From the IMG/VR virus record IMGVR_UViG_2574180019_000006: a stretch of 64,000 bases of DNA; one strand, given 5' to 3'. Shown in pieces: positions 7,715 to 62,961 of the stretch. The stretch comes from a virus (lineage: Duplodnaviria; Heunggongvirae; Uroviricota; Caudoviricetes). How positions within the stretch are numbered: position 1 is the stretch's first letter; each line of letters begins with the position of its first letter. A model generated the notes under the pieces. The model had not been told where the DNA came from. It ran no database searches and worked only from the letters and a program-made list of their open reading frames with translations. Both the position numbers and the translations under genes were made by a program.

Positions 7715-7788
7715 CTCAATTGGTAAGTATATACTTACTATTAGCGCAATGAATGCGTAGAATTAACGGAAAAAGGAGTTTTCCATCA

Positions 7789-29429: not shown

Positions 29430-29699
29430 CTACTCCATGCTTTTCAGACGATCAGCAGCTCGTTTCAGCTTGTCGTTCGGTGCCGGAGGATTGCTTATAG
29501 CGTCCATAACCAGATTCCAGGATTCTTCATTCAGAACTAGTCTACGGTGTTGCTCTATAACTTTCACGGCACGTTCAGATGCACTGCTAACCATAAACTG
29601 AGTAATGCTCTGGTTAGACATTGCGGCAGCTTCCTCGATGATGCTTTTATCGTCATCGGTTAATCTCAAATCGATGCGCTGCTTTTTTAGTGCTGACAT
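29430..29699 (-). CDS. DUF1778-type (RHH) antitoxin (TacA/KacA-like)
   Basis: About 90 aa from the ATG preceded by AGGAGG; sequence MSALKKQRIDLRLTDDDKSIIEEAAA is typical of DUF1778 antitoxins paired with GNAT toxins. Confidence 0.65.
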   Translation of the reverse strand: MSALKKQRIDLRLTDDDKSIIEEAAAMSNQSITQFMVSSASERAVKVIEQHRRLVLNEESWNLVMDAISNPPAPNDKLKRAADRLKSME

Positions 29700-30017
29700 G
29701 TATTCCTCCTGATGGCCGTGATGTAGGAAGGCCATCAATCTCCTCTGTTCAAACTGAGTTTTCGACTCAAAAATTACTTTAAAAGGCTATAGCCCATTAC
29801 GTGTGCATTATCAAATTGTGTACGGCATATCACCGTACTTGTAATATAGATGTCATTGTTACTTTTTTCAACAGACAAATACAAGCTATGTTTGCCAATT
29901 GTTAATCACAACCTACCATTTAACCTTTACACCGCAGCCGTAGGCATTTAGGCTATATCACATATAAGAAAACAAGTTGTTTCAGACGATAATTATATAC
30001 GCAAAGGGAACTCTCCA

Positions 30018-30686
30018 ATGACCAAGATCTTTGTGGTTGGCGGCACAAAGGGCGGGCCTGGCAAATCCACCGTTGCCCAGCAAATTGCCGTTTGCCTGAA
30101 AGTCAAAAAGAAGAAGAAGGTTTATATTACCGATATAGATATTCAGCGCACGACAACGAGCTGGTGTGAAGACCGTCGACAGAACGAAGACCTTGAGCTG
30201 ATTCCTTTTGCATACGTTCAGGATGACATCATTAAGCATCTAAAATCGCTTCAGGGTAGAGCTGAGTTTGTAGTGGTAGATGCTGGTGGCTTCGACTCCG
30301 AAATTCAGCGACAAGCGATGCTGATGGCTGACGTTATCATTATCCCGCTGCGTCCTAAGCGTCGTGATTTGAAATCTTTACGTGACATCGATCCTATTAT
30401 CGACAATGTTCGCAATGTAAACGATAAAGTGAAGGTCCGCGCGGTCATGAACCAGTGCCCGGCTTTGCCATCACAAGTGTCTCGCATTCTGGCGGCTAAA
30501 GAGATTGTTGAGACGTTTGGAATCGAGTCTGCGCCAGTCAATCTATATAACCGCAACGTCTATGATGATGCGGAAGAGTCTGGTCGTTCTATCTTTGAAA
30601 TGACCGGTAGCGAGCGCGACAAAAAGGCGGAAGCCGAGTTTGAAGAATTTGTAGATTATCTGTTGAGTCTGGAGGAAGAAGAATAA
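30018..30686 (+). CDS. parA: ParA-family partition ATPase
   Basis: Deviant Walker A motif GGTKGGPGKST near the N-terminus; 222 aa; followed by a small basic protein. Confidence 0.8.
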   Translation: MTKIFVVGGTKGGPGKSTVAQQIAVCLKVKKKKKVYITDIDIQRTTTSWCEDRRQNEDLELIPFAYVQDDIIKHLKSLQGRAEFVVVDAGGFDSEIQRQAMLMADVIIIPLRPKRRDLKSLRDIDPIIDNVRNVNDKVKVRAVMNQCPALPSQVSRILAAKEIVETFGIESAPVNLYNRNVYDDAEESGRSIFEMTGSERDKKAEAEFEEFVDYLLSLEEEE

Positions 30687-31045
30687 TGTCCATGAAAATG
30701 GGTGACCTAGCAAAGCGCAAAGAGCCTGATGCACCGGCTAAGAACACAACTCCTTTGCGCCAACCAGTCAGACCACAGGGACGCCCGACTCGTGGCAAAG
30801 AGAAAATTAAAAGCCGCACAATGTCACTGGAGGACGAATACTTCGAACTGCTGGAGATGATGAAGTTCATCCCTCGCTTCGAGAAGTTCACTCGTTCTGA
30901 CGTGATTCGAGCAGCCATTTTCCATCTGGCAGAGAAGTCACCGCAGGAAATCGAGGACATCGTGAAATTGAATGAGGCGATCACCGCTGCCGATGTCACG
31001 ATGCGTACCGATGAAATCAAACGAGAGTTGATGAAGAAAGGTTAA
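30686..31045 (+). CDS. Partition protein (ParB/ParG-like centromere-binding protein)
   Basis: 119 aa, basic N-terminus, start overlaps the parA stop; typical small partner of a short ParA. Confidence 0.5.
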   Translation: MSMKMGDLAKRKEPDAPAKNTTPLRQPVRPQGRPTRGKEKIKSRTMSLEDEYFELLEMMKFIPRFEKFTRSDVIRAAIFHLAEKSPQEIEDIVKLNEAITAADVTMRTDEIKRELMKKG

Positions 31046-31361: not shown

Positions 31362-32624
31362 ATGATTAATAAAATTGATTTCAAAGCTAAGAATCTAACA
31401 TCAAATGCAGGTCTTTTTCTGCTCCTTGAGAATGCAAAAAGCAATGGGATTTTTGATTTTATTGAAAATGACCTCGTATTTGATAATGACTCAACAAATA
31501 AAATCAAGATGAATCATATAAAGACCATGCTCTGCGGTCACTTCATTGGCATTGATAAGTTAGAACGTCTAAAGCTACTTCAAAATGATCCCCTCGTCAA
31601 CGAGTTTGATATTTCCGTAAAAGAACCTGAAACAGTGTCACGGTTTCTAGGAAACTTCAACTTCAAGACAACCCAAATGTTTAGAGACATTAATTTTAAA
31701 GTCTTTAAAAAACTGCTCACTAAAAGTAAATTGACATCCATTACGATTGATATTGATAGTAGTGTAATTAACGTAGAAGGTCATCAAGAAGGTGCGTCAA
31801 AAGGATATAATCCTAAGAAACTGGGAAACCGATGCTACAATATCCAATTTGCATTTTGCGACGAATTAAAAGCATATGTTACCGGATTTGTAAGAAGTGG
31901 CAATACTTACACTGCAAACGGTGCTGCGGAAATGATCAAAGAAATTGTTGCTAACATCAAATCAGACGATTTAGAAATTTTATTTCGAATGGATAGTGGC
32001 TACTTTGATGAAAAAATTATCGAAACGATAGAATCTCTTGGATGCAAATATTTAATTAAAGCCAAAAGTTATTCTACACTCACCTCACAAGCAACGAATT
32101 CATCAATTGTATTCGTTAAAGGAGAAGAAGGTAGAGAAACTACAGAACTGTATACAAAATTAGTTAAATGGGAAAAAGACAGAAGATTTGTCGTATCTCG
32201 CGTACTGAAACCAGAAAAAGAAAGAGCACAATTATCACTTTTAGAAGGTTCCGAATACGACTACTTTTTCTTTGTAACAAATACTACCTTGCTTTCTGAA
32301 AAAGTAGTTATATACTATGAAAAGCGTGGTAATGCTGAAAACTATATCAAAGAAGCCAAATACGACATGGCGGTGGGTCATCTCTTGCTAAAGTCATTTT
32401 GGGCGAATGAAGCCGTGTTTCAAATGATGATGCTTTCATATAACCTATTTTTGTTGTTCAAGTTTGATTCCTTGGACTCTTCAGAATACAGACAGCAAAT
32501 AAAGACCTTTCGTTTGAAGTATGTATTTCTTGCAGCAAAAATAATCAAAACCGCAAGATATGTAATCATGAAGTTGTCGGAAAACTATCCGTACAAGGGA
32601 GTGTATGAAAAATGTCTGGTATAA
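31362..32624 (+). CDS. tnpA: ISEcp1 transposase
   Basis: 420-aa ORF between the ISEcp1 inverted repeats; AT-rich codon usage unlike the backbone. Confidence 0.9.
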   Translation: MINKIDFKAKNLTSNAGLFLLLENAKSNGIFDFIENDLVFDNDSTNKIKMNHIKTMLCGHFIGIDKLERLKLLQNDPLVNEFDISVKEPETVSRFLGNFNFKTTQMFRDINFKVFKKLLTKSKLTSITIDIDSSVINVEGHQEGASKGYNPKKLGNRCYNIQFAFCDELKAYVTGFVRSGNTYTANGAAEMIKEIVANIKSDDLEILFRMDSGYFDEKIIETIESLGCKYLIKAKSYSTLTSQATNSSIVFVKGEEGRETTELYTKLVKWEKDRRFVVSRVLKPEKERAQLSLLEGSEYDYFFFVTNTTLLSEKVVIYYEKRGNAENYIKEAKYDMAVGHLLLKSFWANEAVFQMMMLSYNLFLLFKFDSLDSSEYRQQIKTFRLKYVFLAAKIIKTARYVIMKLSENYPYKGVYEKCLV

Positions 32625-32727
32625 TAAGAATATCATCAATAAAATTGAGTGTTGCTCTGTGGATAACTTGCAGAGTTTATTAAGTATCATTGCAGCAAAG
32701 ATGAAATCAATGATTTATCAAAAATGA

Positions 32728-32757
32728 TTGAAAGGTGGTTGTAAATAATGTTACAAT
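32728..32757 (+). promoter_or_regulatory. ISEcp1 outward promoter driving blaCTX-M
   Basis: TTGAAA (32728..32733), 18-bp spacer, TACAAT (32752..32757) near the right end of ISEcp1, upstream of the 48-bp spacer and the bla start. Confidence 0.6.
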
Positions 32758-32810
32758 GTGTGAGAAGCAGTCTAAATTCTTCGTGAAATAGTGATTTTTG
32801 AAGCTAATAA

Positions 32811-33755
<945 letters not shown>

Positions 33756-40830: not shown

Positions 40831-41029
40831 ACGGGAGAAGGAAACGCTTCATGAAATCAGTAAGTGGCCGGAGTTCCCTGAGTACTGGAAGCCTAAAACG
40901 CGAGCTAAGTTAGAGCGTTTAGGGTTGGTTGCAAACGTTTCTGAAACGTGGTGTTCGGCCAACTACCAGTTAACTGATAAAGGGAAAGTATTGCTACAGC
41001 AATTAGTAGAATCAGGAGCGTTAAAATGA
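40814..41029 (+). CDS. Hypothetical protein
   Basis: 71-aa ORF overlapping its neighbours on both sides. Confidence 0.35.
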   Translation: MIVLSKREKETLHEISKWPEFPEYWKPKTRAKLERLGLVANVSETWCSANYQLTDKGKVLLQQLVESGALK

Positions 41030-41178
41030 TTCCATACATCTCATTAGCTTTTATGGGTGGCTTCCTTATCGGCTTCGGCATCTGTCGTGATTTAATTAAG
41101 CAGGAACTTAAAACCAAAACACTGTGCATCGGAAAGCGTGTGTATCGGGTAGTTCATGAAACAAAGGTGAAAAAATGA
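41026..41178 (+). CDS. Small membrane protein (50 aa), paralog B
   Basis: Translated by hand: MIPYISLAFMGGFLIGFGICRD...GKRVYRVVHETK; RBS AGGAG; shares a TM segment and basic GRR.YR.VE.T tail with paralog A. Confidence 0.35.
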   Translation: MIPYISLAFMGGFLIGFGICRDLIKQELKTKTLCIGKRVYRVVHETKVKK

Positions 41179-41465
41179 GCAATTTAACTTCTTGGGAATG
41201 GTGGTTGGCCACCTATTTCTTAGCGGCCGGAGTCGCATTCGCCTTTTACGTAGGTCAGTTAGTCGTAAAACTGTTGCTGATTAAATTTGCTAGTCATAAA
41301 CGTATCGATGATGGTCTGTGGCGTCTTGGCACCCTGGTGGAAACTCGCTACGGGCAACTTAAGGAGAACGAAACCATTACTATCCAAGCGAAACGATTCA
41401 CTGCCACCATTACAAGAACACCTAGTCGTAGAGTGGCCTTGATCAAAAAAGTCACAACCGAATAA
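41175..41465 (+). CDS. Membrane protein, hypothetical
   Basis: 96 aa with N-terminal TM helix; start overlaps previous stop. Confidence 0.4.
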   Translation: MSNLTSWEWWLATYFLAAGVAFAFYVGQLVVKLLLIKFASHKRIDDGLWRLGTLVETRYGQLKENETITIQAKRFTATITRTPSRRVALIKKVTTE

Positions 41466-42241
41466 AAACATATTGATAAGTATTTACTTACTTATCTTTT
41501 GTGTATAAGATGACTTTGTTTTCGTTGAGACGCGACTGTTTGAACTTAAATACAAGTGCAAACGAAGAAGTCTATCTGGCAGTAGCCTAATAAGCCAAAC
41601 ACCAGCGAGGTCAGTTTCCAGCCTCGTTACCGAAATGGGACACACTGAGCGAGTGTGATTGCAGAACGCAGGAGGGAACATGAATGTTCCCTCCGATGAA
41701 GTAACAGAATGGGCGGTTGGTATATTTTCAACTCCATATGACTCCCGGATTCTTAGCCACTGACCGCCCATCCTGTTACGTCATTTTGTTCAATTATGTC
41801 GTTTATACTGGGTTAAAAAGCGGCGACGTAGCCCGGCTGGTATGGTTAGCCAGCACACAACGTTGAGGCCATTACATTTTTATCAATTCTAAGGTTCTAT
41901 TCACAGAGATACCGGCGAGCGTTGATATGTAACATGTTGGGCAAACATTCAATCGGAGTAGTGGCCTCAACGTTGTGAAGACAGGATTGTTGTGTAGGTT
42001 TAACCACTGTTGCCATTGGTGCCTGTTTTCACAACAAATGATTCCATACATCACATTGTATAAATTACAAAGTAGGTGCTGTCCTCAGAAACATCATCTA
42101 CTTAAAGATTTAGCCTTCTATTGAGCGAAGTCGAAAACGTCTGGCACTAACGAAAAGTGCAAGTAGCGGTGCGTTTCCTGGCAGAAACTAACACCGCCGC
42201 GATTGGCACTGTTGAGTAATAAATACTGTCAGTGCTGAATT

Positions 42242-42316
42242 GATGGTGTAGCTCAGCGGTAGAGCAGTTGGCTGTTAACCAACTGGTCGGTGGTTCGAAT
42301 CCACCCACCATCGCCA
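42242..42316 (+). tRNA. tRNA-Asn (anticodon GTT)
   Basis: Complete cloverleaf folded by hand: 7-bp acceptor GATGGTG/CACCATC, D-stem GCTC/GAGC, anticodon stem GTTGG/CCAAC with loop CTGTTAA, T-arm GGTGG-TTCGAAT-CCACC, encoded CCA. Confidence 0.85.
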
Positions 42317-42318
42317 AT

Positions 42319-42394
42319 GCCGGTTTAGCTCAGTTGGTAGAGCGCCTGCCTTGTAAGCAGGATGTCAGCGGTTCGATCCCGTTAACCGGCACCA
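42319..42394 (+). tRNA. tRNA-Thr (anticodon TGT)
   Basis: Cloverleaf: acceptor GCCGGTT/AACCGGC, D-arm GCTC-AGTTGGTA-GAGC, anticodon stem CCTGC/GCAGG with loop CTTGTAA, T-loop TTCGATC, encoded CCA; 2 nt after tRNA-Asn. Confidence 0.85.
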
Positions 42395-42714
42395 ACACAA
42401 CAGGTAAGAGCATTGGGCGAATCGGCGATACTGACCCACAAGGCCGTAAATCGATAGAGTCAGACCAGTGCTCTTACCGTTGTGAGGAAGTGCAGCTCTT
42501 TGAAGCAACCAGAAGATAAGCATCTGGCTTCACAACACAACGATAAGATCATTACGGTTAATCGTCGTTCATGTGCACAATGACTGGTCGAAAGGTAGTG
42601 ATCTTACCGTTGTGATGAATGCACAGGCTGATGTGCCGCAACTACAGTAGTGCGCGCTTTGCGGGGCTTGCTACAACCCTGTGTCGGAGTTCAGCACCGA
42701 CCATCACAATAGCT

Positions 42715-42801
42715 GGAGAGTAGGGAGCATGGTGCTCAAGCGGTCTTGAAAACCGTCCCATTGCGCAAGCGATGATGGTTCGATTCCATTACTCTCCGCC
42801 A
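42715..42801 (+). tRNA. Probable type II tRNA-Ser (anticodon TGA) with long variable arm
   Basis: Acceptor GGAGAGT/ACTCTCC, anticodon stem GCGGT/ACCGT with loop CTTGAAA, long variable region, T-loop TTCGATT, encoded CCA; D-arm is atypical so the call is tentative. Confidence 0.45.
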
Positions 42802-42956
42802 GACACAGCGTTGAGCGGTTTGGCCTTTTAATCAACTCGATTAAGACTCCGCTAACATAAACCAGACCGCTCAACGCTGTGATAGACAATTACGGCAGAC
42901 GTTCTTAACCATAGCTTGCTAACATCCTAGCAACACTTTTTTCAGCGCAAAATCCA

Positions 42957-42978
42957 AAGGGGCTTCGGCCCCTTTTTT
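42957..42978 (+). terminator. Rho-independent terminator closing the tRNA island
   Basis: GGGGC-ttcg-GCCCC followed by TTTTTT; lies 3 bp from the stop of the convergent minus-strand gene. Confidence 0.7.
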
Positions 42979-42980
42979 GG

Positions 42981-43871
42981 TTACTGATTATCTAGGTATG
43001 CTGTTAACTCATTTTTAATGATCAGTGAATATTCTAAAATCTCACCTAGTAAATACTCTGCTTTTTTAAAATGCCACCCCATAGAGCCTAATTTTTCTGA
43101 AGGTCTTTCTAACAACATTATAATATCGCTGTCTTGCTCTTTGGCAATGTATTGTCTTATTTCTCTCTCCCAATTATTTCTTGTCTTTCCACTTATTGAT
43201 GATTCATCCAAAACTTTGTTTATAAACTTTTCCGTGTCGGCGAACTTTCCTGCATTATGCACAATTGTATGTCTTAGCAACTCAATTAGAGTGATCTCGA
43301 AACGATAGTTTTTACCTATCTTGTTATTTATTTCTACGTCTCTGAAATTGGGTAATTTTCTTCTAAATACTTTCAGGAATGTTTTTAGTGATTTATTTTT
43401 TATCGCCTCGTAATAGGTTTCCATAGCTCCATTTTTATCAATCTGAACCTTTGGAAATTCACTAGGTGACCAAAAATGGTAATGTATGCTCACTGTATGG
43501 GCATATATTTTCTTAATATAATCTTCAAACAATTCAAAAGCTTCAGTTATAACCCATTGATATTGTTTGTTTTTTAACGCTTCGCATAATTTTATCTTCT
43601 CTGAGATATCTATTGTGCTATGCCCAATTCCAAATGTTGAACCTGTATATGGATTTGAGCATGTATGGTTTGTTAACGTTGTCCCGCATGTTATTGGGGG
43701 GGTATTATTAGCATCTAGAGTTTGTGCGTTTTCAAGTGTATGCTTAAATCGCTTTATGTTGTCTTTCGTTGTAACATTTATATGACCTAACAAGTCACAA
43801 CGCAAAATTATTTCGTTTCTTAATTCAGTGAATATGTTTTCAACAAAAGAACCTAGCGGGTTTTCAATCAT
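42981..43871 (-). CDS. Low-GC orphan protein, HEPN-like (possible abortive-infection/defence protein)
   Basis: 296-aa minus-strand ORF, markedly AT-rich versus neighbours; contains an Rx4H motif (LLRHTIVHNAG) of the kind found in HEPN/Abi-type RNases. Family assignment is tentative. Confidence 0.4.
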   Translation of the reverse strand: MIENPLGSFVENIFTELRNEIILRCDLLGHINVTTKDNIKRFKHTLENAQTLDANNTPPITCGTTLTNHTCSNPYTGSTFGIGHSTIDISEKIKLCEALKNKQYQWVITEAFELFEDYIKKIYAHTVSIHYHFWSPSEFPKVQIDKNGAMETYYEAIKNKSLKTFLKVFRRKLPNFRDVEINNKIGKNYRFEITLIELLRHTIVHNAGKFADTEKFINKVLDESSISGKTRNNWEREIRQYIAKEQDSDIIMLLERPSEKLGSMGWHFKKAEYLLGEILEYSLIIKNELTAYLDNQ

Positions 43872-44046
43872 CTAAACCTCAACGAAAATCTTACCTATAA
43901 GACAGTCCTTAATGTAATCTATTTTCTCCACTACTTCAAATTACCTCACAATCTACCGATAGGTGACTACCTACTTACATACAAAGTTGATTTATAGTAT
44001 AGTCCCTCTGTTGCGTATTAGTATTTTTAAAGGCATTTGTTAAGTT

Positions 44047-44292
44047 ATGACGATCACTATCTACGGACGAGATAACTGCTCATACTGCAAACGTGCGGTC
44101 GAGCTGGCGAAGCAACTAAAGGGACATGGCTACGGTGATTATGAGTACATCGACATCACCACTGCCGGTATCGACAAGGAAAAACTAAGTGAAATTGTTG
44201 GTAAACCGGTAGAGACTATCCCCCAGGTGCTGATCGATGGCCAGCCGATTGGCGGATACACAGAACTGGCTGCATACGTCAGCACCCTCTGA
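44047..44292 (+). CDS. Glutaredoxin/NrdH-like redoxin
   Basis: 81 aa with active site CSYC in a thioredoxin-fold context (TIYGRDNCSYCKRA ... IPQVLIDGQPIGGY). Confidence 0.8.
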   Translation: MTITIYGRDNCSYCKRAVELAKQLKGHGYGDYEYIDITTAGIDKEKLSEIVGKPVETIPQVLIDGQPIGGYTELAAYVSTL

Positions 44293-44298
44293 TTTTAA

Positions 44299-44321
44299 CG
44301 GCTCACAGGAGCCGTTTTTAT
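44299..44321 (+). terminator. Rho-independent terminator
   Basis: ACGGCTC-acag-GAGCCGT followed by TTTTT. Confidence 0.6.
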
Positions 44322-44502
44322 TCCCACCAAACTCACTCCCATTTCCCTTAAAATTCAAAAAACAACGTCAAAATGATTCCATACCTACTATGTATGGAAT
44401 CATTGCTGAAAATGAGTTACTTTTACTCTTGATCCTATAAGAATCTATGCCTAATATACTGTTTACTTATACAGTACATCGGCGTAACTCGGTGATTGTC
44501 AT

Positions 44503-45606
44503 ATGAAAAATAGCTTTGACAGAGCACGCGCTGCGGAGAACACCTCAAAAGAGGCGATAGAGTATCTCGAAAGAGCATCTCAAATGCAGGCCGTTATGAT
44601 CTCGCAGGTTAGCAATGACATGAGATTCTCGGACGCATTCATGTTATTCACTCGCTTATCTCTGCTGATAACCAGACGTCGGCCAGAGATCGCTGTTCAT
44701 TGTATTTTGATACATGTTTTGCCGCACATTGCCGATGTAAAAGTAAGTGACATTAATAGGTTCATGGTGAACCAACTGGTCAACCCACTAATACTGGATG
44801 GCAAAATTGTTATGGGCCGCCGCGTTTTCTCTCTGATGAAGCAGTTCCTTAGCTGGTGCGCCTTCCAGGGGATGATAGACGTGTCACCGTTAAACGATAT
44901 GTCACTTAACAAAGTTGCCGGTGGCGCAAAGCCCACACCTCGCGAGCGGAAGCTGACCGACGCAGAGGTATGGGTGTTCTGGAATATATGGGACTACTTC
45001 AATGTGTGCGCTGGTACAAAATGGGCGGCCAGGCTGTGTCTTGTATCAGCAAGACGACCTGACGAAGTACTGCGGGCTAAAAAAAGTGAGTTCAATCTTA
45101 AGCGTGGAGTTTGGAATCAAGGCAAGAGAAACAAGTCAGCACGTGAGCATTCGCTGCCTTTAAGCACATTAATGCGCACATGTATTGAAGAGTTGTTCGA
45201 ATACGGTAAAGGCAGCCAGTGGCTCGTGCCTTCGAATAAAAAAATCGGGAAAGACCTTCCTATGTCTAAAGTGGCAATAGCCCAGGCATTACGTCGTATT
45301 CTGGAACGACCAGAACTGATGGAGCTTGAGCCATTTACACCCCGAGACTTGCGCCGTACTGCGCGTAGTTACTTCCCAGCTTTAGGCATAAGCCAGGAGG
45401 TATCACGCAAAATCATGAACCACAGTCTTGAGGGGATAGATCGAGTCTACGACCGGCACGATTATATGGACGAGATGCGAGACGCCTTAGAAAGTTTCTC
45501 GACGTACATCGCATCAATCGTAGAGCAACCGGATTTAGACGAAATTGACCACAAATTCAAGGGAGATCGTCTATCAACAGAGCTTATTCGTGTAAATTTT
45601 TCATAG
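44503..45606 (+). CDS. Tyrosine recombinase/integrase
   Basis: C-terminal catalytic-domain signatures of phage integrases (ARRPDEV, PRDLRRTARS, VYDRHDY); true start codon uncertain. Confidence 0.7.
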   Translation: MKNSFDRARAAENTSKEAIEYLERASQMQAVMISQVSNDMRFSDAFMLFTRLSLLITRRRPEIAVHCILIHVLPHIADVKVSDINRFMVNQLVNPLILDGKIVMGRRVFSLMKQFLSWCAFQGMIDVSPLNDMSLNKVAGGAKPTPRERKLTDAEVWVFWNIWDYFNVCAGTKWAARLCLVSARRPDEVLRAKKSEFNLKRGVWNQGKRNKSAREHSLPLSTLMRTCIEELFEYGKGSQWLVPSNKKIGKDLPMSKVAIAQALRRILERPELMELEPFTPRDLRRTARSYFPALGISQEVSRKIMNHSLEGIDRVYDRHDYMDEMRDALESFSTYIASIVEQPDLDEIDHKFKGDRLSTELIRVNFS

Positions 45607-45987
45607 AGACTTTATGGCCTCAACAACCTTTTGTGATGCGCCTTTCTCTTTACCGAATCGCTCGTTATATGCAGCAAGAACCTGTTTTTCGTCCTCGTTA
45701 AGAGGAGCGGTGCCTTCTTTGTATAAAAATGCTGCGAGTTCAGGTTGGCGTTCTTCCAGCACCATCATCATAAGACGACTTGGCTCAATACCCAGCGCCA
45801 GCGCCAACGGACGAACCTTATCGATAGGCAAAGGAATTTTGCCACTTTTAATTAAAGAAAGGTTGTTGGCATTTTTATAACCAATAAGTCTGGCTATTTG
45901 GGCCTGACTCATAGGTGAGGATTCAATCAGCCCTGCGATAAAAGCAGCATAGCGACTTTCTATAAATTCAATCTTGTTGTCAGACAT
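45601..45987 (-). CDS. XRE-family helix-turn-helix transcriptional regulator (candidate phage repressor)
   Basis: 128 aa; HTH segment SQAQIARLIGYKNANNLSLIKSGK; divergent from downstream genes; an imperfect palindrome GGTAAGTGCTTACC lies in its upstream region. Confidence 0.6.
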   Translation of the reverse strand: MSDNKIEFIESRYAAFIAGLIESSPMSQAQIARLIGYKNANNLSLIKSGKIPLPIDKVRPLALALGIEPSRLMMMVLEERQPELAAFLYKEGTAPLNEDEKQVLAAYNERFGKEKGASQKVVEAIKSL

Positions 45988-46237
45988 TGTTACAACCTTT
46001 GCGCGTTCAATTCTCTCTGGTAAGTGCTTACCGATATTACATCAAAGGTTAGGGTTGTAAAGCTATTATCATTTTTTCGATAGGCACTTAAAAGACCGGT
46101 TAAAGGCCATTGCACGGAGAAAAATTAGCCCAAAACAGGTAAGAAAATTAACTTGCATATGATATGAATGTATTCAGTATTGATATAAATTTTAGTAGTA
46201 TTCCTTACCATAGTATAAGTTAGAATGGATTGATTGA

Positions 46238-46450
46238 ATGAACACCACTATTTCCAGCCTAATCGCTCTTGAGATCGGACACGTACAGAAATTAGCTGAT
46301 GAGTGTGTAGCTGACATCCTCACCGATCTACCGAATGAGCAGATTCAGGTTGGTGTGAATGACACAACTGGCTTTATATTCGAACTTAACAACAAACGCT
46401 TCACGCTTCTCAATATCGGCTCCGGGTCTTTAGCCGTCAGAATCTGTTAA
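46238..46450 (+). CDS. Hypothetical protein
   Basis: 70-aa ORF followed by an inverted repeat CTGCGCGAA...TTCGCGCAG. Confidence 0.3.
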   Translation: MNTTISSLIALEIGHVQKLADECVADILTDLPNEQIQVGVNDTTGFIFELNNKRFTLLNIGSGSLAVRIC

Positions 46451-46548
46451 CCCCTCTTCTCCCTGCGCGAATGGCTTAGTTCCCTGTTCGCGCAGTGCTA
46501 CATTAAACACACTAGTAAATAATTTGTTTTCATAACAAAGGATTAGCC

Positions 46549-48657
46549 ATGTCTAAAAAACGTTCCATCAAAGAGGTTCAGGACTTCCGTGACAGTGTAA
46601 AACGAGTAGTCGCTCTCCTTTCAGGTAAAAACATCCCTGTTGCAGAACGAGGGGACGACGCTTATGTACGCTATAACGATGATGGAGAGCCAATTCTCGT
46701 AAACATCCCATCAATCCCGGATAACGCAACACCGGCATTGATGAATGCTGTGCGCGGATTTCTCGATCATGAGGTTGCTCACATTTTGTTTACCGATATT
46801 CGTGTGTCCAACAAAATGAGAGAAAAAGGACGCGTTCCTTCCTGGTCGCTATGGAATGCCTTAGAAGACGTGTTCATCGAGCGAAAAATGGGTCAGGTCT
46901 TTAACGGAACAAGACGTAATCTGATGGCAACTCAGCGCCTTATAATCGAAAAAGTCTTTAAACCAAAGGCTTCAGAGGCTATTGCTTATTGTGGCAAAGA
47001 TCAGCGCGCGCTTTTTCTAAACTTCTTTCTCTGTCCGGTTGTAAGAGCCTGGGATGGCCAAGCACCGTTCGTAGATTTCATGGATGAACATTGGCCTGTC
47101 ATTGAGAAACCAATTTCATTATTAAAAGAACATGGTATCGATGTGGCCGTGCGTAACATGTCTTGCACCGAGGATTGTGTAAAGGTGGCTGCGACCATAG
47201 CTAAGATCCTCAAAGACACTGAAAGTGAAAGCAAAGGTAAGGAGTCAGCTCCGGGAAAAACTTCCGATCCTTCAGACGCTGACCAGACGGATGCCTCTGG
47301 AGAAAACAATGAAGACAACGAAGATCATGAGACTCCCTCAGTGTTAGATAATCACAAATCTATCAAATCAGAATCACATAGTAAGTACAAACATGATAAT
47401 AACAACAGTGATGATTCAGATAATTCTGAATCATCAGAAACAATATTCGATGATACAGAAAATGATAAAGAGGTATCAGATTCTGATGCTTCTGATAACG
47501 CGGCGTCAGAATCATTAACCGCTGACCACGAAAAAAGAAAAACGACAGAAGACGGCTCTTCAGATATCCCAACTCCGTCAAAAATGAGTCTGGAAGAGGC
47601 TTTAGAGGAGCTGGATAGCATAGAAGATGAAGTCGGAGGCATGACAGAAGATGCTCTATCCGAAACGATTAAAAGCGAGTTAACAGAAAGCTCGAAAAGC
47701 GAATACAGGCCATACAATCGCTCATACGACTTCATCGGCTCGATTGATCAGGCAGAAGCCCATATCAAACGGCTTATTAAAACATTCTCCGATATTGATT
47801 TGGGAGGATATCCAATCAGCCGCTATCGCATCGTTCCTGAAGGCAACCAGCTCTTCGACAAATATATTGAAAAGCATCTTTCGTCAGGTGTTTCGTCGAC
47901 GCTGGCAAAAGACCTGGAGCGAGCAATAGCAAGCAGAAACAGAGTTCAGTTTATACCGGGCCAGCGTCGGGGGCGCATTCATGGTTCTAGTATCTACAGA
48001 TTAGCAATGAATGATGCTCGCGTGTTTCGTAAAAAAGAAGAATCTAAAGCCGTTAACGCCTGTGTTCAACAAGTGATTGATTTATCAGGTTCAATGAGTG
48101 GTATAACGATTAAACTGGCTCTTGCAAGTGCATATACCATCGCCGATGCCCTTGATCGAATAAATGTTCCCAACATTATCACCGGCTTCACTACATTTGG
48201 TAGTCATATGGCGGCAGGAGAACTTAAGGCTGTCAAGTATGAGTTCTCTCGCTTTGAATCTTTAATGCTACCTATCATCAAAAATTGGAATGAAAAGGTA
48301 AATTCTCGCGAAGTTCGCTCACGTATGGGGTGCGTAGGCTACACATTCCCACTTCTTAATAACGTGGATGGTGAAAGCATAGCCAGCCTTGCATCGTTAT
48401 TTTCCGGTCGCATGGAGGACAGGAAGATCATGCTTGTTCTGAGTGATGGCGCGCCGTGGGCTGTTGGGAGAGGTTTTGACGCTCATTTGCGTTCAGTTGC
48501 GAAGCAAATTGAAACGCAGACTGATATTGATTTGCTGGCAATTGGCATCATGACTGACGCACCGGAGAGATTTTACTCAAATCATGCCCTGGTAACGAGC
48601 GTTGATAGTCTTGGTTCATCTGTAGTTACTGAACTATCTCGTATCATTTTAAAGTGA
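46549..48657 (+). CDS. vWA-domain protein (CobT-like) with acidic disordered linker
   Basis: C-terminal von Willebrand A domain with MIDAS-like DLSGSMSG; central 250-aa Asp/Glu/Ser-rich low-complexity segment; partner AAA+ ATPase gene follows. Confidence 0.6.
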   Translation: MSKKRSIKEVQDFRDSVKRVVALLSGKNIPVAERGDDAYVRYNDDGEPILVNIPSIPDNATPALMNAVRGFLDHEVAHILFTDIRVSNKMREKGRVPSWSLWNALEDVFIERKMGQVFNGTRRNLMATQRLIIEKVFKPKASEAIAYCGKDQRALFLNFFLCPVVRAWDGQAPFVDFMDEHWPVIEKPISLLKEHGIDVAVRNMSCTEDCVKVAATIAKILKDTESESKGKESAPGKTSDPSDADQTDASGENNEDNEDHETPSVLDNHKSIKSESHSKYKHDNNNSDDSDNSESSETIFDDTENDKEVSDSDASDNAASESLTADHEKRKTTEDGSSDIPTPSKMSLEEALEELDSIEDEVGGMTEDALSETIKSELTESSKSEYRPYNRSYDFIGSIDQAEAHIKRLIKTFSDIDLGGYPISRYRIVPEGNQLFDKYIEKHLSSGVSSTLAKDLERAIASRNRVQFIPGQRRGRIHGSSIYRLAMNDARVFRKKEESKAVNACVQQVIDLSGSMSGITIKLALASAYTIADALDRINVPNIITGFTTFGSHMAAGELKAVKYEFSRFESLMLPIIKNWNEKVNSREVRSRMGCVGYTFPLLNNVDGESIASLASLFSGRMEDRKIMLVLSDGAPWAVGRGFDAHLRSVAKQIETQTDIDLLAIGIMTDAPERFYSNHALVTSVDSLGSSVVTELSRIILK

Positions 48658-49990: not shown

Positions 49991-50194
49991 GTGCGTAAAG
50001 GATGTTTCGGCTCTCTTATCGCTGCTTCTGAAACTGGTAAGGCTTGTCTGGTGTGTCCAGACAAGCCCGATTGTCACCAATCAGCAAAAGAAGTTGCGAT
50101 TTCGATGCATGGGAAGTTCGTAGGCTTCCCCAATGACAAAATCAAAAAAACCAGAAAGGTAAAAACACATGAAGGCACTGATGGTTCGAACTGA
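49991..50194 (+). CDS. Small Cys-rich hypothetical protein
   Basis: 67-aa ORF with C..C...C..C-like spacing; overlaps the start of the downstream polymerase gene. Confidence 0.25.
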   Translation: MRKGCFGSLIAASETGKACLVCPDKPDCHQSAKEVAISMHGKFVGFPNDKIKKTRKVKTHEGTDGSN

Positions 50195-52532
50195 CTTCTC
50201 ACTTGGGGAGTCGGCTCTAAAAGCAGAAAACGCGGTGAAGATTGCCAGAGAAGCTGGCTACACCGCTGTAATTTCAGCAGATAGCATGAATATTGCGAGC
50301 GTTATTCCACTACAACGTGCCGCTGGTGACGACATGGCGGTTATTTGTGGTGTGAAACTAAACATTGTTGATGATCCCACATACGAGCACCGGGCTAAAC
50401 TTGCTAAAGAATCTATGAGATGTATGGAATCATTAGAGCGAGGACGTAACTACTCGTTTACCGCTCTAATTAAAAATGAGAAAGGATATCGCGACATCTG
50501 CGAACTAATGACGGCGGCCAACACACGAGAACAGTTCTACTTTGTACCGCGTCTCTCGCTCGAACAGTTGGTTTCTACATATGCCAAAGGCAACATCATC
50601 CTGCTTACTTCCGACATCGGTAGCGTGTTCCAACGCAACGATTTTGCAAAAATCATAAGCACACTGATTACAGCGGGTGGAAAAGACAACTTCTATAGTG
50701 TGGTTTATCCGCACCCTACCCCATTCTACGACCAGATTAACGTCCGGGCGATGAAAGTCGCCAGCGCATTGAAAATAGAGCCAGTGGCGTTCTATCCCGC
50801 TTATTACGAATCGATCGACGATGCAGACATTAAAGACATTGCGCACATGGTTACGAACAACATCAAAATCGACCAGCCGCATCGTCTGCGTATCCCCCAC
50901 CAGCGAGATAACGCCGTCAATGGTCGCCGCCATCTCCTTGAGGCGCTTAAAGCCTTCTCCGTTCGCATGGATGTGCCGGTAACAGCTGCAATGGCCTCAA
51001 CAACGCAGGATACCATTATCGATGCCTGCACATGGCGCTGGCATGAATTGCCGCCAGCACTGCCAAAGATGGCAGACGACGAGCCTGCAACGCTGATGAA
51101 ACTGGCTGTTGCAGGGCTGCGTAAACGTCTTACCACAAAAGAGTTTGGCTACACACCACCTGCTTCTGAGAACAGGGTTTATGTTGAGCGGCTAAAGTAC
51201 GAAATGGACACGCTGACTCGCCTGGGATTCTGTGGTTACTTCCTGATGGTGCGCGATCTGATGAATCATAGTCGTGAAACTGGCATTCCCGTTGGGCCTG
51301 GTCGTGGTTCCTCTGCCGGTTCTCTGGTGGCGTGGTGCATAGGCATAACCAACGTCGACCCAATCCGTCACGGTCTTCTGTTTGAGCGTTTCATCAACCC
51401 TGAGCGTCTCGACTTGCCGGATGCGGACTTGGACTTCAGCCAGGCACGTCGCCATGAGGTGATCGAGTATCTGAATGAACGCTACGGCGAAGATTACGTT
51501 GCAGGCATTCCGAACTTCACCTACCTGGGCGCAGCCTCTGCACTACGTGATACCGCTCGTATTTATGGTGTGGAGTCCGCAGATATGGCGGTATCAAAAG
51601 AACTGAAGAACGTCGAGGATGATAGCCTTCCATTGGAAGAGCTGCGCGAACAACTGGCAAGTCTCGACAAATACGCAACAAAATATCCTGATGCATTCAA
51701 TGCAGCCTGCAAGTTACAAAGCCTTATGCGTGGCTTTGGTAGACATGCGGCAGGGATGATCGTAGCAGGTGTTCCTCTGACAGAACGTACACCGGTTGAG
51801 CGCCGTGGTGACGCGCGTTGTATCGCATTTGACAAGCGTTACTGCGAGGCTATGGGCCTAATTAAGCTGGACGTGCTTGGCCTGGCAACTCTCGATTTGC
51901 TCGATAGTGCAAAACGCTACATAAAAGAGAACACAGGTGAAGATATCAATCTCGACGCTATCCCACTGGACGATCGCAAGGTTCTGGATGGGTTCGCTGC
52001 AGGGTACACGCAGGGCGTATTCCAGCTGGAGTCCGGCCCCATGCGTAAGTTGCTTAAAGATCTGGGCGGTGGCATCGAGCCAATGAGCTTCAAGACCGTT
52101 GTCGCCACGACCGCACTCTTCCGACCAGGCCCGATTCAATCCGGCATGTTGGACGACTATGTCTCCGTGGCCAAAGGCTTCATGGCTCCACATTCCTTAC
52201 ACCCTATGCTGGACGACATCTCTCGCGACACAAACGGTGTTCTGATTTATCAGGAACAGATCATGGCTGCTACGCGAATCTTGGCGGGGTTCTCAATGGC
52301 GGAAGCAGACTCGGTCAGGAAAGCGATCGGGAAAAAAGATATGGAGAAAATGAAATCCATTGGCGGCGACTTCATTAAGCGAGCGGAGGAAGGCTGTGTG
52401 ACAGTGTCACTGGATGACGGTTCTACGAGAAAAATCCATAAAGCAGCACGCCTACTTTGTGCTGATGGTGAGCGTCGCACTTATGCCGAAGCAATGGCAA
52501 TAAATGCCGACATAACGAGCTTCGATATTTGA
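50169..52532 (+). CDS. DNA polymerase III alpha-like (DnaE family), N-terminal fragment
   Basis: 787 aa; polymerase core motifs (GPGRGSSAGSLVAWCIGIT, LDVLGL, FRPGPIQSG, IYQEQIM); ends with a 45-aa non-homologous tail before the stop. Confidence 0.75.
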   Translation: MKALMVRTDFSLGESALKAENAVKIAREAGYTAVISADSMNIASVIPLQRAAGDDMAVICGVKLNIVDDPTYEHRAKLAKESMRCMESLERGRNYSFTALIKNEKGYRDICELMTAANTREQFYFVPRLSLEQLVSTYAKGNIILLTSDIGSVFQRNDFAKIISTLITAGGKDNFYSVVYPHPTPFYDQINVRAMKVASALKIEPVAFYPAYYESIDDADIKDIAHMVTNNIKIDQPHRLRIPHQRDNAVNGRRHLLEALKAFSVRMDVPVTAAMASTTQDTIIDACTWRWHELPPALPKMADDEPATLMKLAVAGLRKRLTTKEFGYTPPASENRVYVERLKYEMDTLTRLGFCGYFLMVRDLMNHSRETGIPVGPGRGSSAGSLVAWCIGITNVDPIRHGLLFERFINPERLDLPDADLDFSQARRHEVIEYLNERYGEDYVAGIPNFTYLGAASALRDTARIYGVESADMAVSKELKNVEDDSLPLEELREQLASLDKYATKYPDAFNAACKLQSLMRGFGRHAAGMIVAGVPLTERTPVERRGDARCIAFDKRYCEAMGLIKLDVLGLATLDLLDSAKRYIKENTGEDINLDAIPLDDRKVLDGFAAGYTQGVFQLESGPMRKLLKDLGGGIEPMSFKTVVATTALFRPGPIQSGMLDDYVSVAKGFMAPHSLHPMLDDISRDTNGVLIYQEQIMAATRILAGFSMAEADSVRKAIGKKDMEKMKSIGGDFIKRAEEGCVTVSLDDGSTRKIHKAARLLCADGERRTYAEAMAINADITSFDI

Positions 52533-52580
52533 GAATTAATTTATAAGATAAGAAAACAATTTGTTTAGTGAGTCTTAGAA

Positions 52581-53315
52581 ATGCCGAGTACGAAGTACAA
52601 AATCACAGAAGAATGGTTACGTCAGCGTTACATGGTTGACCTGATGAGAAAAGAAGACATTGCCGCCGAAGCTGGTTGCAGCAAGGCAAATATTGACCGC
52701 TTATTAGCCAAATGGGGGATCAGGCGCGGAAACGCGCGGATCTCCGCTACCCCAGCCTGGAATCGTGGCAAAAACAAAAATAATGACGAACGTATGAAGC
52801 GACTCTCCGAAGCCCGGACTGGCACTGGCAACCCTATGTATGGGAAAACCTCGTGGAATGCCGGTCTGCGTGCTGATATCGATGAGCGAGTGGCCACCGT
52901 TTCGAAAAAGCTAACCGGCAGAACAATCCGCGCGGAGACGAAGGAAAAGCTGGCGGCTGCCAAACGCGGAAAGATCGGAGAAGAAGCGAACAACTACAAA
53001 GGTGGCATCATCGTAAAAACCAACGGCTACATGATGCAGCTGGTTGGTAACAATGGAGTTTCGCAATACGAATACGTTCATCGGTTGATAGCGAAAGAAC
53101 GTCTCGGTCGGGAGCTACGTGACGATGAACATGTCCACCATATTAACCGCGATACGGTAGATAACGCCCCTGGGAATCTGGTGGCACTTCCAGAAGACGC
53201 CCACATTCGCCTGCATAGCGAAATGCGTGAAAAGGTATGGAGCTGGGAGCGCCAGCGGGACTGGCTGGCCTCCAATGGGTATGAGTTCGTGAAGATTGAT
53301 GAGGTGACTGAATGA
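52581..53315 (+). CDS. HNH homing endonuclease
   Basis: 244 aa; HNH motif EHVHHINRDTVDNAPGNLVALPEDAHIRLH and NUMOD-like repeats; inserted between the two halves of the polymerase gene. Confidence 0.7.
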   Translation: MPSTKYKITEEWLRQRYMVDLMRKEDIAAEAGCSKANIDRLLAKWGIRRGNARISATPAWNRGKNKNNDERMKRLSEARTGTGNPMYGKTSWNAGLRADIDERVATVSKKLTGRTIRAETKEKLAAAKRGKIGEEANNYKGGIIVKTNGYMMQLVGNNGVSQYEYVHRLIAKERLGRELRDDEHVHHINRDTVDNAPGNLVALPEDAHIRLHSEMREKVWSWERQRDWLASNGYEFVKIDEVTE

Positions 53316-54481
53316 AAATTACCAGTGTAGTTGAAGAGAGCAATGGCCTGACGCACGAACGAGCCGAAGAAATCTGGAATATGTTTGAGAAATCCGGCGC
53401 GTATGCCTTCAACAAATCACACTCTGTTGCTTACTCCTTAATCAGTTATCAATCTATGTGGTTGAAAACTCATTATCCCGCGGAGTTCTTCGCTGCTGCT
53501 CTCACTATTCTTGGCGAAGATAAACACCAGGGGCTGGTTAAAGATGCGCTGACCTATGGTATTCGCGTATTGCCACCAGACGTTAACGTGTCATCTAACC
53601 GAATCGAGATCCGCACGCTTGAAGATGGCAGCCAGGTGCTGTATGCGCCCTTCTCTGCTGTGAAAGGGTGTTCTGAGAATGGCTGCCAAGCCATCATGAG
53701 AGCGCGAGAAAAAGTTGGCGGCAAATTCGAGTCACTGGCGCAATTCGAAGAAGCTGTCGAGAAACGTGCCTGTAATAGTCGAGTGCACGAATCACTGCAA
53801 AAAGTAGGTGCGTTTGCATCCATCGAGCCAGGTAGTCTGCCAGCAACTGATCCAGAGCGTCTCCGCGACCAGGCTGAATTGATGGGAAACCTTGTCATAG
53901 ACGCAGTTAAAGCCTCACGTCCGTTTGAGATGAACCCCAAACGTTCGGCTGAGATTAACGTGCTCATGACACGGATGGCGGCTGAAATGGGATTAGGTGA
54001 TGAACTAATCCGCCCTAGCATTGGCATTAAGCCGAAAATCATGATCATTATGGACAATGCAAACGGCAATGATGCTCGAACCGGTTACTTTATGGAGAAC
54101 GGATACGACGATTTTAAGGCCAAGCTGTTGACGGCTGGGGATTTGCGCATGGGCGATCTCTATGTCACAGGCGTTTGCAAAAAGGTGAAAGACAAAGAAA
54201 AGGACTACACCAAAGACGAGATCGGCCAGTTCACCGACTTTATGCGTGAAGAGATCAATCTGGTGCGCCCGACCTATGTGCTGACGTGTGGTAGCCGGGC
54301 AACGGCATTGTTTAACAACAAAAACAAGCCATCCGATTTGGTCGGCAGGAAGGAGTATCTTCCAGACCTTGACGTTACTGTCTTTTACGGGTTTAACCCC
54401 AACATTCTTTACTTCAGACCTGAAGAGGGAGAACGACTAGAAGCGATATTAGCCGACGTAGCAGAAACTATTAAGTCGTGA
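53312..54481 (+). CDS. DNA polymerase III alpha-like (DnaE family), C-terminal fragment
   Basis: 389 aa; begins near the conserved AYAFNKSHS...YQ..WLK.HYPAEF motif that directly follows the region where the N-terminal fragment stops. Confidence 0.7.
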   Translation: MKITSVVEESNGLTHERAEEIWNMFEKSGAYAFNKSHSVAYSLISYQSMWLKTHYPAEFFAAALTILGEDKHQGLVKDALTYGIRVLPPDVNVSSNRIEIRTLEDGSQVLYAPFSAVKGCSENGCQAIMRAREKVGGKFESLAQFEEAVEKRACNSRVHESLQKVGAFASIEPGSLPATDPERLRDQAELMGNLVIDAVKASRPFEMNPKRSAEINVLMTRMAAEMGLGDELIRPSIGIKPKIMIIMDNANGNDARTGYFMENGYDDFKAKLLTAGDLRMGDLYVTGVCKKVKDKEKDYTKDEIGQFTDFMREEINLVRPTYVLTCGSRATALFNNKNKPSDLVGRKEYLPDLDVTVFYGFNPNILYFRPEEGERLEAILADVAETIKS

Positions 54482-62943: not shown

Positions 62944-62961
62944 GTGGACACCTTTGTCATT

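Follow-up and report, generated by a model that had tools for sequence, protein, structure and literature searches.

Extrachromosomal prophages and plasmids are known to carry tyrosine recombinases of their own, such as Cre, which acts at loxP of phage P1, and ResD, which acts at rfsF of the F plasmid. More elaborate arrangements exist as well: in TnpI/IRS of Tn4430 and IntI/attI, further copies of the binding motif are found besides the inverted repeats of the core, integron integrases are repressed by LexA, and the Rci/sfx shufflon of IncI plasmids is worked by a tyrosine recombinase whose sites have only one conserved arm. The role of Cre in P1 is multimer resolution and cyclization, as summarized in PMC7969092. 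MrpR (YopR) of phage SPbeta, in which the catalytic residues are lost, is a constitutive master repressor acting through the SPBRE repeats (PMC10516654). In the present study we analyzed a stretch of 64,000 nucleotides (hereafter the window; IMG/VR virus record IMGVR_UViG_2574180019_000006), which is a known SSU5/pHCM2/pMT1-type phage-plasmid of Escherichia coli with ISEcp1-blaCTX-M-15, and asked how its locus for the tyrosine recombinase Int compares with these systems. The locus comprises int, a candidate recombination core just upstream of it, and a convergent gene for a helix-turn-helix (HTH) regulator (Table 1). We lean towards regarding int and the core as a Cre/loxP-like module for multimer resolution, and possibly for cyclization, that comes from an arm-less descendant of P4-type integrases, is under SOS control in phage-plasmids, and lies beside the repressor switch while being separate from it.

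Int passes the threshold of the Pfam family Phage_integrase (PF00589; 39.4 bits, cut-off 27.1) and matches the PHROG "integrase" family with E = 1e-46, so an earlier note on this DNA, which had called it an integrase-family recombinase, was right in this respect. The catalytic residues, whose absence from an alignment that note would have taken as evidence of an inactive enzyme, are present: the set R-K-R-H-Y is intact (R185, K211, R284, H307, and Y316), and in an alignment of 37 sequences no variation is seen at R185, R284, and Y316 and almost none at K211 and H307. An AlphaFold2 model of Int (pLDDT 86, pTM 0.78), in which the N-terminal 70 residues are modeled as helices, gave λ Int (1z1b) as the best Foldseek match (E = 3.6e-7, TM-score 0.60, residues 75-356), followed by Tn1549 Int, XerH, and IntI, and the recombinase-fold repressors SroF and YopR were among the matches, weakly. 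The model confidently predicts a core-binding plus catalytic fold like that of λ Int and XerH. A sequence search of the PDB gave no match for either Int or the HTH protein. In homology searches Int fell into a compact enterobacterial clade of proteins of 340-380 residues, which extends to ~44% identity and has the Phage_int_M and Phage_integrase domains. The nearest proteins outside the clade are P4-type integrases of ≤34% identity, all with the arm-binding domain PF13356. This N-terminal domain (PF13356/DUF4102) was detected by Pfam neither in Int nor in the clade members listed (E ≤ 1e-53), while all of the next-best matches (E ≥ 1e-37) bear it. With the P4-type (CP4-57/IntS-like) integrases, Int shares the C-terminal motif HS..G....YDRHDY as well as the Phage_int_M and Phage_integrase domains; it differs from them in lacking PF13356, in an Arg that takes the place of His-II throughout its clade, and in that the copies of its clade found in the E. 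coli and PLSDB searches are plasmid-borne. Judged from these sequence relationships, Int is a member of a P4-type-derived clade of tyrosine recombinases without an arm-binding domain. Within the phage collection, the SSU5-like elements alone hold a full-length homolog of Int, and the next matches are true integrases of <34% identity. Int did not reach the cut-off of the curated family NF007246 (33.3 bits vs 434), and PADLOC returned nothing for Int or for two other open reading frames (ORFs) of the locus discussed below, the 296-residue cargo ORF and the 70-residue ORF.

The candidate core is a perfect 13-7-13 palindrome of 33 bp with an asymmetric spacer, situated ~100 bp upstream of int. The window contains a single full copy, where none is expected by chance, and the core is also unique per genome in the two complete genomes checked, which are those of PhiR41_1 and of the closest complete plasmid (NZ_JBSTRI010000003.1; 111,954 bp). 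It is located upstream of int in all of the 40 oriented loci (26 unique configurations), at a distance of 45-130 bp from the gene, and its bearers include Cyrano, PhiR41_1, pMT1, pHCM2, Kluyvera, Buttiauxella, two Klebsiella lineages, and several IMG/VR contigs. The core is likewise upstream of int in megaplasmids of Chimaeribacter and Pantoea, where int has no HTH neighbor. The arms are invariant in most lineages, and where changes are present they are symmetric, as in the 59%-identical Klebsiella lineage (TGTGATTCC...GGAATCACA) and in Pantoea (GACTCCAGAC...GTCTGGAGTC). The spacer, of which there are 11 variants across the configurations, occurs with the same sequence in both orientations relative to int (CTACTAT/ATAGTAG in E. 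coli; CTATTAA/TTAATAG in pHCM2 vs Buttiauxella). Flipping of the spacer was considered as a sign of recombinase action and dropped; because both flanks are kept in Buttiauxella, we read it as local inversion of the loop of the palindrome. A scan for GATTCCATAC-N7-GTATGGAATC in one genome from each of 185,579 species found 10 loci, 7 of them enterobacterial, and all seven of these have int adjacent. Three Amycolatopsis palindromes composed of the same 10-mers and a 7-bp spacer have no int nearby and probably represent an unrelated operator or chance. Left of the core, phage-plasmids and megaplasmids share a weakly conserved A-rich element, whose offset is the same in both and which may serve as an accessory binding element or a degenerate third one. 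Rfam detected nothing but tRNAs and noise in 41300-46600. In the literature searched, the core is not described, matches to its sequence being confined to unrelated papers, and no functional study of the pMT1/pHCM2 integrase or of multimer resolution in phage-plasmids was found.

In its general design the core resembles loxP, being a single simple site near the recombinase gene with two 13-bp inverted arms and an asymmetric spacer, without arm-type sites and without Xis. The differences are also clear, however. Int has no sequence kinship to Cre, which ranks 38th or lower in Foldseek with E of ~0.02-0.09 vs 4e-7 for λ Int; the spacer is of 7 bp rather than 8 bp; and the predicted LexA-controlled promoter, the A-rich element, and the lone half-sites described below have no counterpart in Cre/loxP. 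No other resolution system is evident in the closest complete plasmid: it has no dif/cer-like XerCD site, and Int is its sole annotated site-specific recombinase. Genes of RecA-like and RuvC-family proteins are present.

The distribution of the module is confined to plasmids. Among 5,426 complete E. coli genomes, int and the HTH gene occur together in 254 places in 252 genomes, all 254 on plasmids (about 100-190 kb) and none on a chromosome. Homologs of Int were found by tblastn on 934 PLSDB plasmids, 900 of which are classed as non-mobilizable; the identity is 86% for Yersinia pestis pMT1, 85% for Salmonella Typhi pHCM2, and 82% for Klebsiella plasmids, Enterobacter, Cronobacter, and Citrobacter also have homologs, and proteins of 45-58% identity are encoded by Pantoea, Rahnella, and Chimaeribacter megaplasmids that are not phages. 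Pfeifer et al., who surveyed thousands of genomes, found SSU5-type elements to be exclusively extrachromosomal (PMC9600943), and the few chromosomal regions resembling phage-plasmids, over all phage-plasmid types, were judged to be defective captures (PMC12977533). The set of one genome per species contained no orphan chromosomal core in Enterobacterales, no Xis was identified near int, and no att repeats were seen at the tRNA genes. Phage SSU5 itself (JQ965645, 6526-6762) has only ~165 bp between tRNA-Asn and cobT and lacks the cargo slot, the core, int, the HTH repressor gene, and the 70-residue ORF. Because SSU5 does without the whole segment, the core-int-HTH module is dispensable for lytic growth.

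The putative −10 element of the int promoter (Pint) is overlapped by a LexA box, TACTGTTTACTTATACAGTA, which is the only CTGT-N8-ACAG in the window. A box is found 49-52 bp past the core in 19 of the 26 unique configurations, with the CTG/CAG positions kept and the center varying, and it is absent at int in the megaplasmid versions and in one divergent viral lineage. PhiR41_1 and the closest plasmid have two strong LexA boxes each, one at Pint and the other upstream of a humD/umuD-like gene, at 26336 in PhiR41_1 and at 43021 in NZ_JBSTRI010000003.1. The int gene appears to be switched on by DNA damage, with LexA as its predicted repressor, and we found no description of a LexA box on int in the literature searched. 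Ciprofloxacin gives a 39-fold induction of Cyrano in LF82, and Cyrano int (CYRAN_44) is not listed among the lysogen genes expressed above background (PMC9928086). The element is SOS-inducible though its repressor lacks a cleavage domain, and the LexA box on Pint gives a lead on how this might be achieved.

From the anatomy of the locus we infer that arm binding and catalysis by Int, resolution, and LexA control would be combined as follows. Two Int protomers would bind the inverted 13-bp arms, the two core copies present in a plasmid dimer would synapse, and strand exchange over the asymmetric 7-bp spacer would convert the dimer into monomers, which could then be segregated by the ParA-based system. 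The same reaction could circularize terminally redundant infecting DNA or undo cointegrates. The LexA box over the −10 element would keep Int low in the quiet lysogen and allow it to rise in the SOS response, when RecA-driven recombination makes multimers. The HTH gene would have a separate function; it encodes the probable prophage repressor, which has its own operator and forms a divergent switch with the 70-residue ORF.

The arm sequence is also found apart from the core. Three lone exact copies of the arm 12-mer ATGATTCCATAC, each followed by ATC, exist in the window (half-sites S1, S2, and S4 in Table 1), where ~0.008 exact copies would be expected by chance, as estimated from the sequence length; shuffles in which up to one mismatch was allowed gave 0.65 copies on average. 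In the complete 112-kb plasmid, the lone copies and the core are the only copies of the arm, all lie within 9.4 kb, and all are directed at the core. pHCM2 has the same three copies without a mismatch, as does a Klebsiella element that was selected by Int similarity alone. S1 is exact in the window, Cyrano, pHCM2, Klebsiella, SSU5, and pMT1, while its flanks vary; in SSU5 two lone copies are exact and the non-coding one has a mismatch, and in pMT1 two are exact. The 12-mer of S4 is unchanged in four lineages despite the variable DnaE loop in which it is situated and many synonymous differences around it, and a more distant lineage has a different DnaE peptide at that position and no site. In the divergent Klebsiella lineage, S2 reads TGTGATTCCATAC and so matches the altered core arms found there. 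The 7 bp that adjoin the arm differ between the lone sites in pHCM2 and Klebsiella. These copies imply binding outside the core by whatever recognizes the arms, for which Int is the simplest candidate. No description of lone half-sites was found in the literature searched. A further, degenerate arm-like copy, antisense in int, is present in most lineages, matches 11 of the 12 positions in pHCM2, pMT1, and Klebsiella, and is more degraded in the window; it overlaps the codons of a conserved VWNQG motif and may be a coding coincidence. We also considered that the lone sites might be start codons of "MIPYI" mini-ORFs, which is unlikely given that they show no synonymous variation, that one is antisense in dnaE, and that ATG changes to GTG together with the core arms in the divergent lineage.

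Several of these features sit uneasily with resolution as the function of the module. The three or four conserved lone arm copies would have no role in a simple lox-type model, and repression by LexA is unexpected for housekeeping resolution, which needs at least basal expression. The occurrence of spacers in both orientations is neutral for resolution and equally compatible with a palindrome that is only a symmetric operator, and the His-II position is occupied by Arg (R281, in PRDLRR) across the whole Int clade in the alignment. Some tyrosine recombinases tolerate Arg in place of His-II. Given the predicted control by LexA, the lone arm copies, and the fact that int runs convergently into the repressor gene, Int could also have a role in regulation or in cargo exchange, neither of which would be exclusive of resolution. 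One possibility, which we consider unlikely while taking it seriously, is that Int serves mainly or additionally as an SOS-induced regulator or architectural protein of the lysis-lysogeny switch that binds the core together with S1, S2, and S4, with transcription from Pint running antisense through the repressor gene at the same time; set off by LexA cleavage, the two would help tip the prophage into lytic growth. That four lineages keep the lone copies exactly, nucleotide for nucleotide, even in the DnaE loop, that one of them co-varies with the core arms, and that they are confined to 9.4 kb around the switch would all be accounted for by such a role, as would the placement on Pint of one of the two strong LexA boxes in each of the two complete genomes, the inducibility of Cyrano by ciprofloxacin in spite of an HTH repressor without autocleavage domain, and the convergent int/HTH overlap kept in the phage-plasmid lineages checked. 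A precedent exists in MrpR/YopR of SPbeta, which binds a repeated element (PMC10516654), and YopR and SroF are among the fold matches of Int. MrpR/YopR and SroF of phi3T resemble Int in being recombinase-fold proteins encoded in a lysogeny region of a phage genome that contains a repeated asymmetric element (PMC10516654). In contrast with MrpR, however, Int retains all of its catalytic residues, LexA is the predicted repressor of int, and the locus encodes an HTH repressor besides Int; moreover, the gene-plus-site pair resides on non-phage megaplasmids without the HTH gene, the LexA box, or nearby lone sites, and there are only three or four lone sites, two of which are in coding sequence. A combined role has a similarly low probability in our estimation: Int might be a catalytically intact, LexA-controlled, dual-purpose protein that recombines the core and also uses the three or four one-armed sites for a higher-order complex or for gene regulation, with an SOS transcript antisense through the repressor gene, and the "integrase" would then be a part of the induction switch. 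Related systems offer partial analogies for the extra copies. The accessory motifs of TnpI and IntI lie within ~100 bp of the core, whereas here the exact extra copies are at a distance of 2.3-6 kb and the sole element next to the core is a degenerate one; unlike integrons, the locus has no cassettes and no attC sites. The one-armed sites of Rci are a possible analogy for the lone half-sites, but no inversion variants were seen here, the lone sites are in or next to essential genes, and a symmetric core exists.

Another possibility, to which we give still less credence, is that Int is a recombinase for cargo capture or cointegration that fuses the phage-plasmid with other replicons or circles having a compatible site or recombines the core with the one-armed sites in a shufflon-like manner. 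Such an activity could account for why the most variable slot of the element directly adjoins the core on its left, with slot content differing per lineage, why foreign DNA abuts the left arm in pMT1 and PhiR41_1, and why megaplasmids of other genera have identical arms, and Int might, as a related possibility, drive the exchange of the adjacent cargo slot, which in Y. pestis holds the F1 capsule operon. It is at odds, however, with the presence of one full site per genome and no attL/attR-like pair, with the insertion sequence (IS) elements beside the replaced segments (an IS3 remnant in PhiR41_1 and IS100 in pMT1), with the lack of any observed rearrangement that has both of its end-points at sites, and with the differing 7 bp next to the arm of the lone sites in pHCM2 and Klebsiella. 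The earlier note had proposed that the recombinase either resolves plasmid dimers or allows integration, the latter implying a dual lifestyle. The former half is the one that has gained ground, with the catalytic residues, the lox-like site by the gene, the homologs on non-phage megaplasmids, and the absence of an alternative recombinase on its side, and although only episomal forms were seen, a candidate resolution site is present. A true integrase inserting into the chromosome, for example at a tRNA gene, might be expected from the nearest relatives outside the clade, which are P4-type phage and island integrases, from the fold, which is closest to that of λ Int, and from the tRNA genes 1.7 kb off. 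Yet none of the 254 E. coli copies is chromosomal, surveys find SSU5-type elements only outside the chromosome, the representative genomes of enterobacteria contain no orphan site, Int has no arm-binding domain, no Xis was identified nearby, and the tRNA genes belong to the phage and have no close counterpart in the host. Chromosomal integration, and with it the dual lifestyle, seems very unlikely on these grounds. Just as improbable, we believe, is that int is a decaying relic and that the palindrome acts in RNA, as a hairpin or terminator, or as an operator bound by some other protein, for instance the HTH repressor or a host factor. Symmetric co-variation fits a hairpin too, the spacer is free to vary and flip, and the position is proximal to the promoter, but no T-run follows the stem on the + strand, a proper terminator of the glutaredoxin gene (grx) is already present at 44297-44316, and the lone single-arm copies cannot form hairpins. 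As for an operator, the HTH protein has a different conserved palindrome of its own, and the site follows int, and not the HTH gene, onto megaplasmids. The 80-100% conservation of Int across genera, with catalytic residues that are invariant or nearly so, speaks against a relic.

The significance of a Cre/loxP-like module in these elements lies partly in their spread, because E. coli, Klebsiella, Salmonella Typhi, and Y. pestis commonly harbor phage-plasmids of the SSU5/pHCM2/pMT1 type, which bring along genes for resistance, here blaCTX-M-15, and for virulence, in pMT1 caf1. The element and the gene are known, and the gene, which encodes their only site-specific recombinase, is universally annotated as "integrase" though the elements are not found integrated; the site and its regulation are undescribed in the literature searched. 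The 33-bp site and the predicted SOS control provide a handle on plasmid stability, and the cargo slot beside the site is a hotspot that may help explain how new cargo is acquired. If Int and the core are a simple recombinase/site pair unrelated to Cre, they could serve as an orthogonal tool for genome engineering. If they are only a resolution system, the result is a useful correction of annotation rather than a surprise.

The HTH protein, which the earlier note had described as a regulator, matches PHROG 8, "transcriptional regulator", with E = 6.6e-12, while its Pfam matches to HTH_19 (18.9 bits; cut-off 30.2) and HTH_37 are below the cut-offs, and Pfam gave no match to the autocleavage domain Peptidase_S24. 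Its ortholog in Cyrano, CYRAN_45, is a putative repressor that is expressed in the lysogen (PMC9928086), and the HTH protein is probably the prophage repressor. The gene had been taken to be divergent from int, but the two are in fact convergent, with 3′ ends that overlap by 6 nt, and this overlap is kept in pMT1, pHCM2, two Klebsiella elements, Cyrano, and PhiR41_1. It is the 70-residue ORF, in the "cro position", that is divergent from the HTH gene; this ORF matches phrog_2627, of unknown function, with E = 5e-40, and is syntenic in the relatives. The predicted promoter of the HTH gene contains a different palindrome, GGTAAGTGCTTACC, in a block that is invariant over five lineages. With up to two mismatches allowed, the GGTAAGTGCTTACC motif occurs 9 times, mostly in intergenic positions, vs 0.83 expected; further matches in the window are at 7721, 22673, 34534, 41474, 48679, 55293, and 60202. 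It is probably the operator of the HTH protein, and its dispersed copies suggest a repressor with several operators. Because the HTH promoter has this conserved palindrome of its own, the 13-7-13 site is not likely to be the operator of the HTH protein.

The three tRNA genes, next to which the recombinase had been said to sit, are 1.7 kb upstream of int, with a low-GC cargo ORF and the glutaredoxin gene in between, and their proximity seems to be incidental. They have no close host counterpart: comparison with host tRNAs, which bears on the suggestion that a core site might be shared with host tRNA genes, gave only generic similarity of 80-87%, to host tRNAs of other identities. The cluster is instead 86-88% identical to that of P1, P7, and D6. 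To judge from these comparisons, the tRNAs are phage-borne genes that form the context of the recombinase system rather than a part of it, and they are not host integration targets. Their likeness to those of the unrelated phage-plasmids P1, P7, and D6 suggests that phage-plasmid families have exchanged DNA. Upstream of the tRNA genes, a non-coding stretch of 770 bp that is rich in hairpins (41470-42240) is 80% identical to SSU5, and tRNA-Thr and tRNA-Ser are separated by a 320-bp spacer with inverted repeats (42395-42714), where Cyrano has only 8 bp; Rfam found nothing convincing in either stretch.

The cargo slot between S2 and the core has a different content in every lineage. In the window it includes the tRNA genes and the 296-residue ORF, which lies in a low-GC patch (0.39), matches only phrog_35492 (unknown function), and has no match in Pfam, NCBIfam, or PADLOC. 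The Klebsiella slot contains a YafO toxin gene and a colicin immunity gene, and that of Cyrano contains CYRAN_43; this gene, which differs from the 296-residue ORF but occupies the equivalent position, has the highest expression of the prophage genes in LF82. In pMT1 (NZ_CP045155.1, 19864-25652), the slot is taken up by the F1-capsule operon caf1R-caf1M-caf1A-caf1, which directly adjoins the left arm, neither S2 nor the tRNAs are present, and the ligase gene is apparently interrupted by IS100; beyond the caf1 slot, comparison with pHCM2 revealed no rearrangement with end-points at sites. In PhiR41_1, the slot holds a remnant of a chaperone-usher operon beside an IS3 fragment, and foreign DNA directly abuts the left arm. 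The whole genome of PhiR41_1 is collinear, with the spacer flipped and homology breaking at the arm; it contains no inversion or second site, and the replaced segment could not be traced to another int/site module. The IS elements could explain the slot contents of both pMT1 and PhiR41_1, and no pair of sites flanking the cargo was found.

Table 1. Positions of the int locus, its sites, and the maintenance genes in the window.
Feature	Position	Strand	Remarks
Candidate recombination core	44372-44404		left arm AATGATTCCATAC 44372-44384; spacer CTACTAT 44385-44391; right arm GTATGGAATCATT 44392-44404
A-rich element, weakly conserved	44345-44362	+	consensus yTCAGAWTTyAAAA; −27 to −10 from left arm
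int promoter (putative)	44429-44476	+	−35 TTGATC 44429-44434; 17 bp; −10 TAATAT 44452-44457
LexA box (predicted)	44457-44476		TACTGTTTACTTATACAGTA; overlaps −10 of int
int (tyrosine recombinase Int)	44503-45606	+	367 residues; Pfam, PHROG, alignment, AlphaFold2 model, Foldseek
Half-site S1	41026-41040	+	ATGATTCCATAC plus ATC; on start codon of 50-residue membrane ORF
Half-site S2	42038-42052	+	ATGATTCCATAC plus ATC; non-coding, upstream of tRNAs; left edge of cargo slot
Degenerate arm-like copy	45109-45120	−	antisense in int; 2 mismatches to 12-mer here; core 10-mer GATTCCAAAC
Half-site S4	50422-50436	−	12-mer 50422-50433; antisense within dnaE
HTH regulator gene	45601-45987	−	128 residues; convergent with int
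HTH promoter (putative)	46018-46061	−	−35 46061-46056; −10 46039-46034; palindrome GGTAAGTGCTTACC 46019-46032
70-residue ORF ("cro position")	46238-46450	+	leads into cobT/cobS/dnaE
tRNA-Asn gene	42242-42316	+	ARAGORN, Rfam
tRNA-Thr gene	42319-42394	+	ARAGORN, Rfam
tRNA-Ser gene	42715-42801	+	ARAGORN, Rfam
Variable cargo slot	42981-44292		between S2 and core
Cargo ORF, 296 residues	42981-43871	−	
Glutaredoxin gene	44047-44292	+	
GNAT toxin gene	28901-29422	−	TacT/TacA-type pair
Antitoxin gene	29430-29738	−	TacT/TacA-type pair
ParA-type ATPase gene	30018-30686		
Rep3/RepB-type initiator gene	61849-63063	−	flanked by at least 15 iterons ACCGCTGACAGCATAC

The identity of the element is evident from the ~5 kb around the int locus, which show 92-97% nucleotide identity to the Escherichia phages CMS-2020a and Cyrano and in part to PhiR41_1, each of them an SSU5-like phage-plasmid. 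The order of genes is common to the relatives: ligase, small ORFs, tRNAs, glutaredoxin, integrase, HTH, the 70-residue ORF, cobT, cobS, and dnaE. The stretch of int and the HTH gene is a 100% match to the 111,954-bp plasmid of an E. coli producing extended-spectrum β-lactamase. As to the replicon functions ascribed to the window by the earlier note, the toxin-antitoxin pair was found, and the iteron replicon is represented by an initiator gene and its iterons (Table 1). The partition genes, given as ParA/ParB-like, proved to be so in part: the ParA-type ATPase was identified, whereas the 119-residue ORF that follows it (30686-31045) matched no partition family. The window also encodes tail proteins, a DnaB-like helicase, a primase, a ligase, the α subunit of DNA polymerase III, and gp32-like and RecA-like proteins. 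Between the par genes and the DnaB-like gene, at 31362-33755, the transposase gene of ISEcp1 (IS1380 family) is followed by blaCTX-M-15; just upstream of this position, the closest complete plasmid has a GIY-YIG gene, which is not intact in the window. That plasmid additionally carries dfrA51, nrdAB, thyA, and metG. The dnaE gene of the window (50169-54481) is split into an ORF of 787 residues, an HNH endonuclease ORF of 244 residues (52581-53315), and an HhH fragment of 389 residues. Because dnaE is a single gene of 3.5 kb in pHCM2, pMT1, SSU5, and the Klebsiella elements, the split looks like the insertion of a mobile endonuclease.

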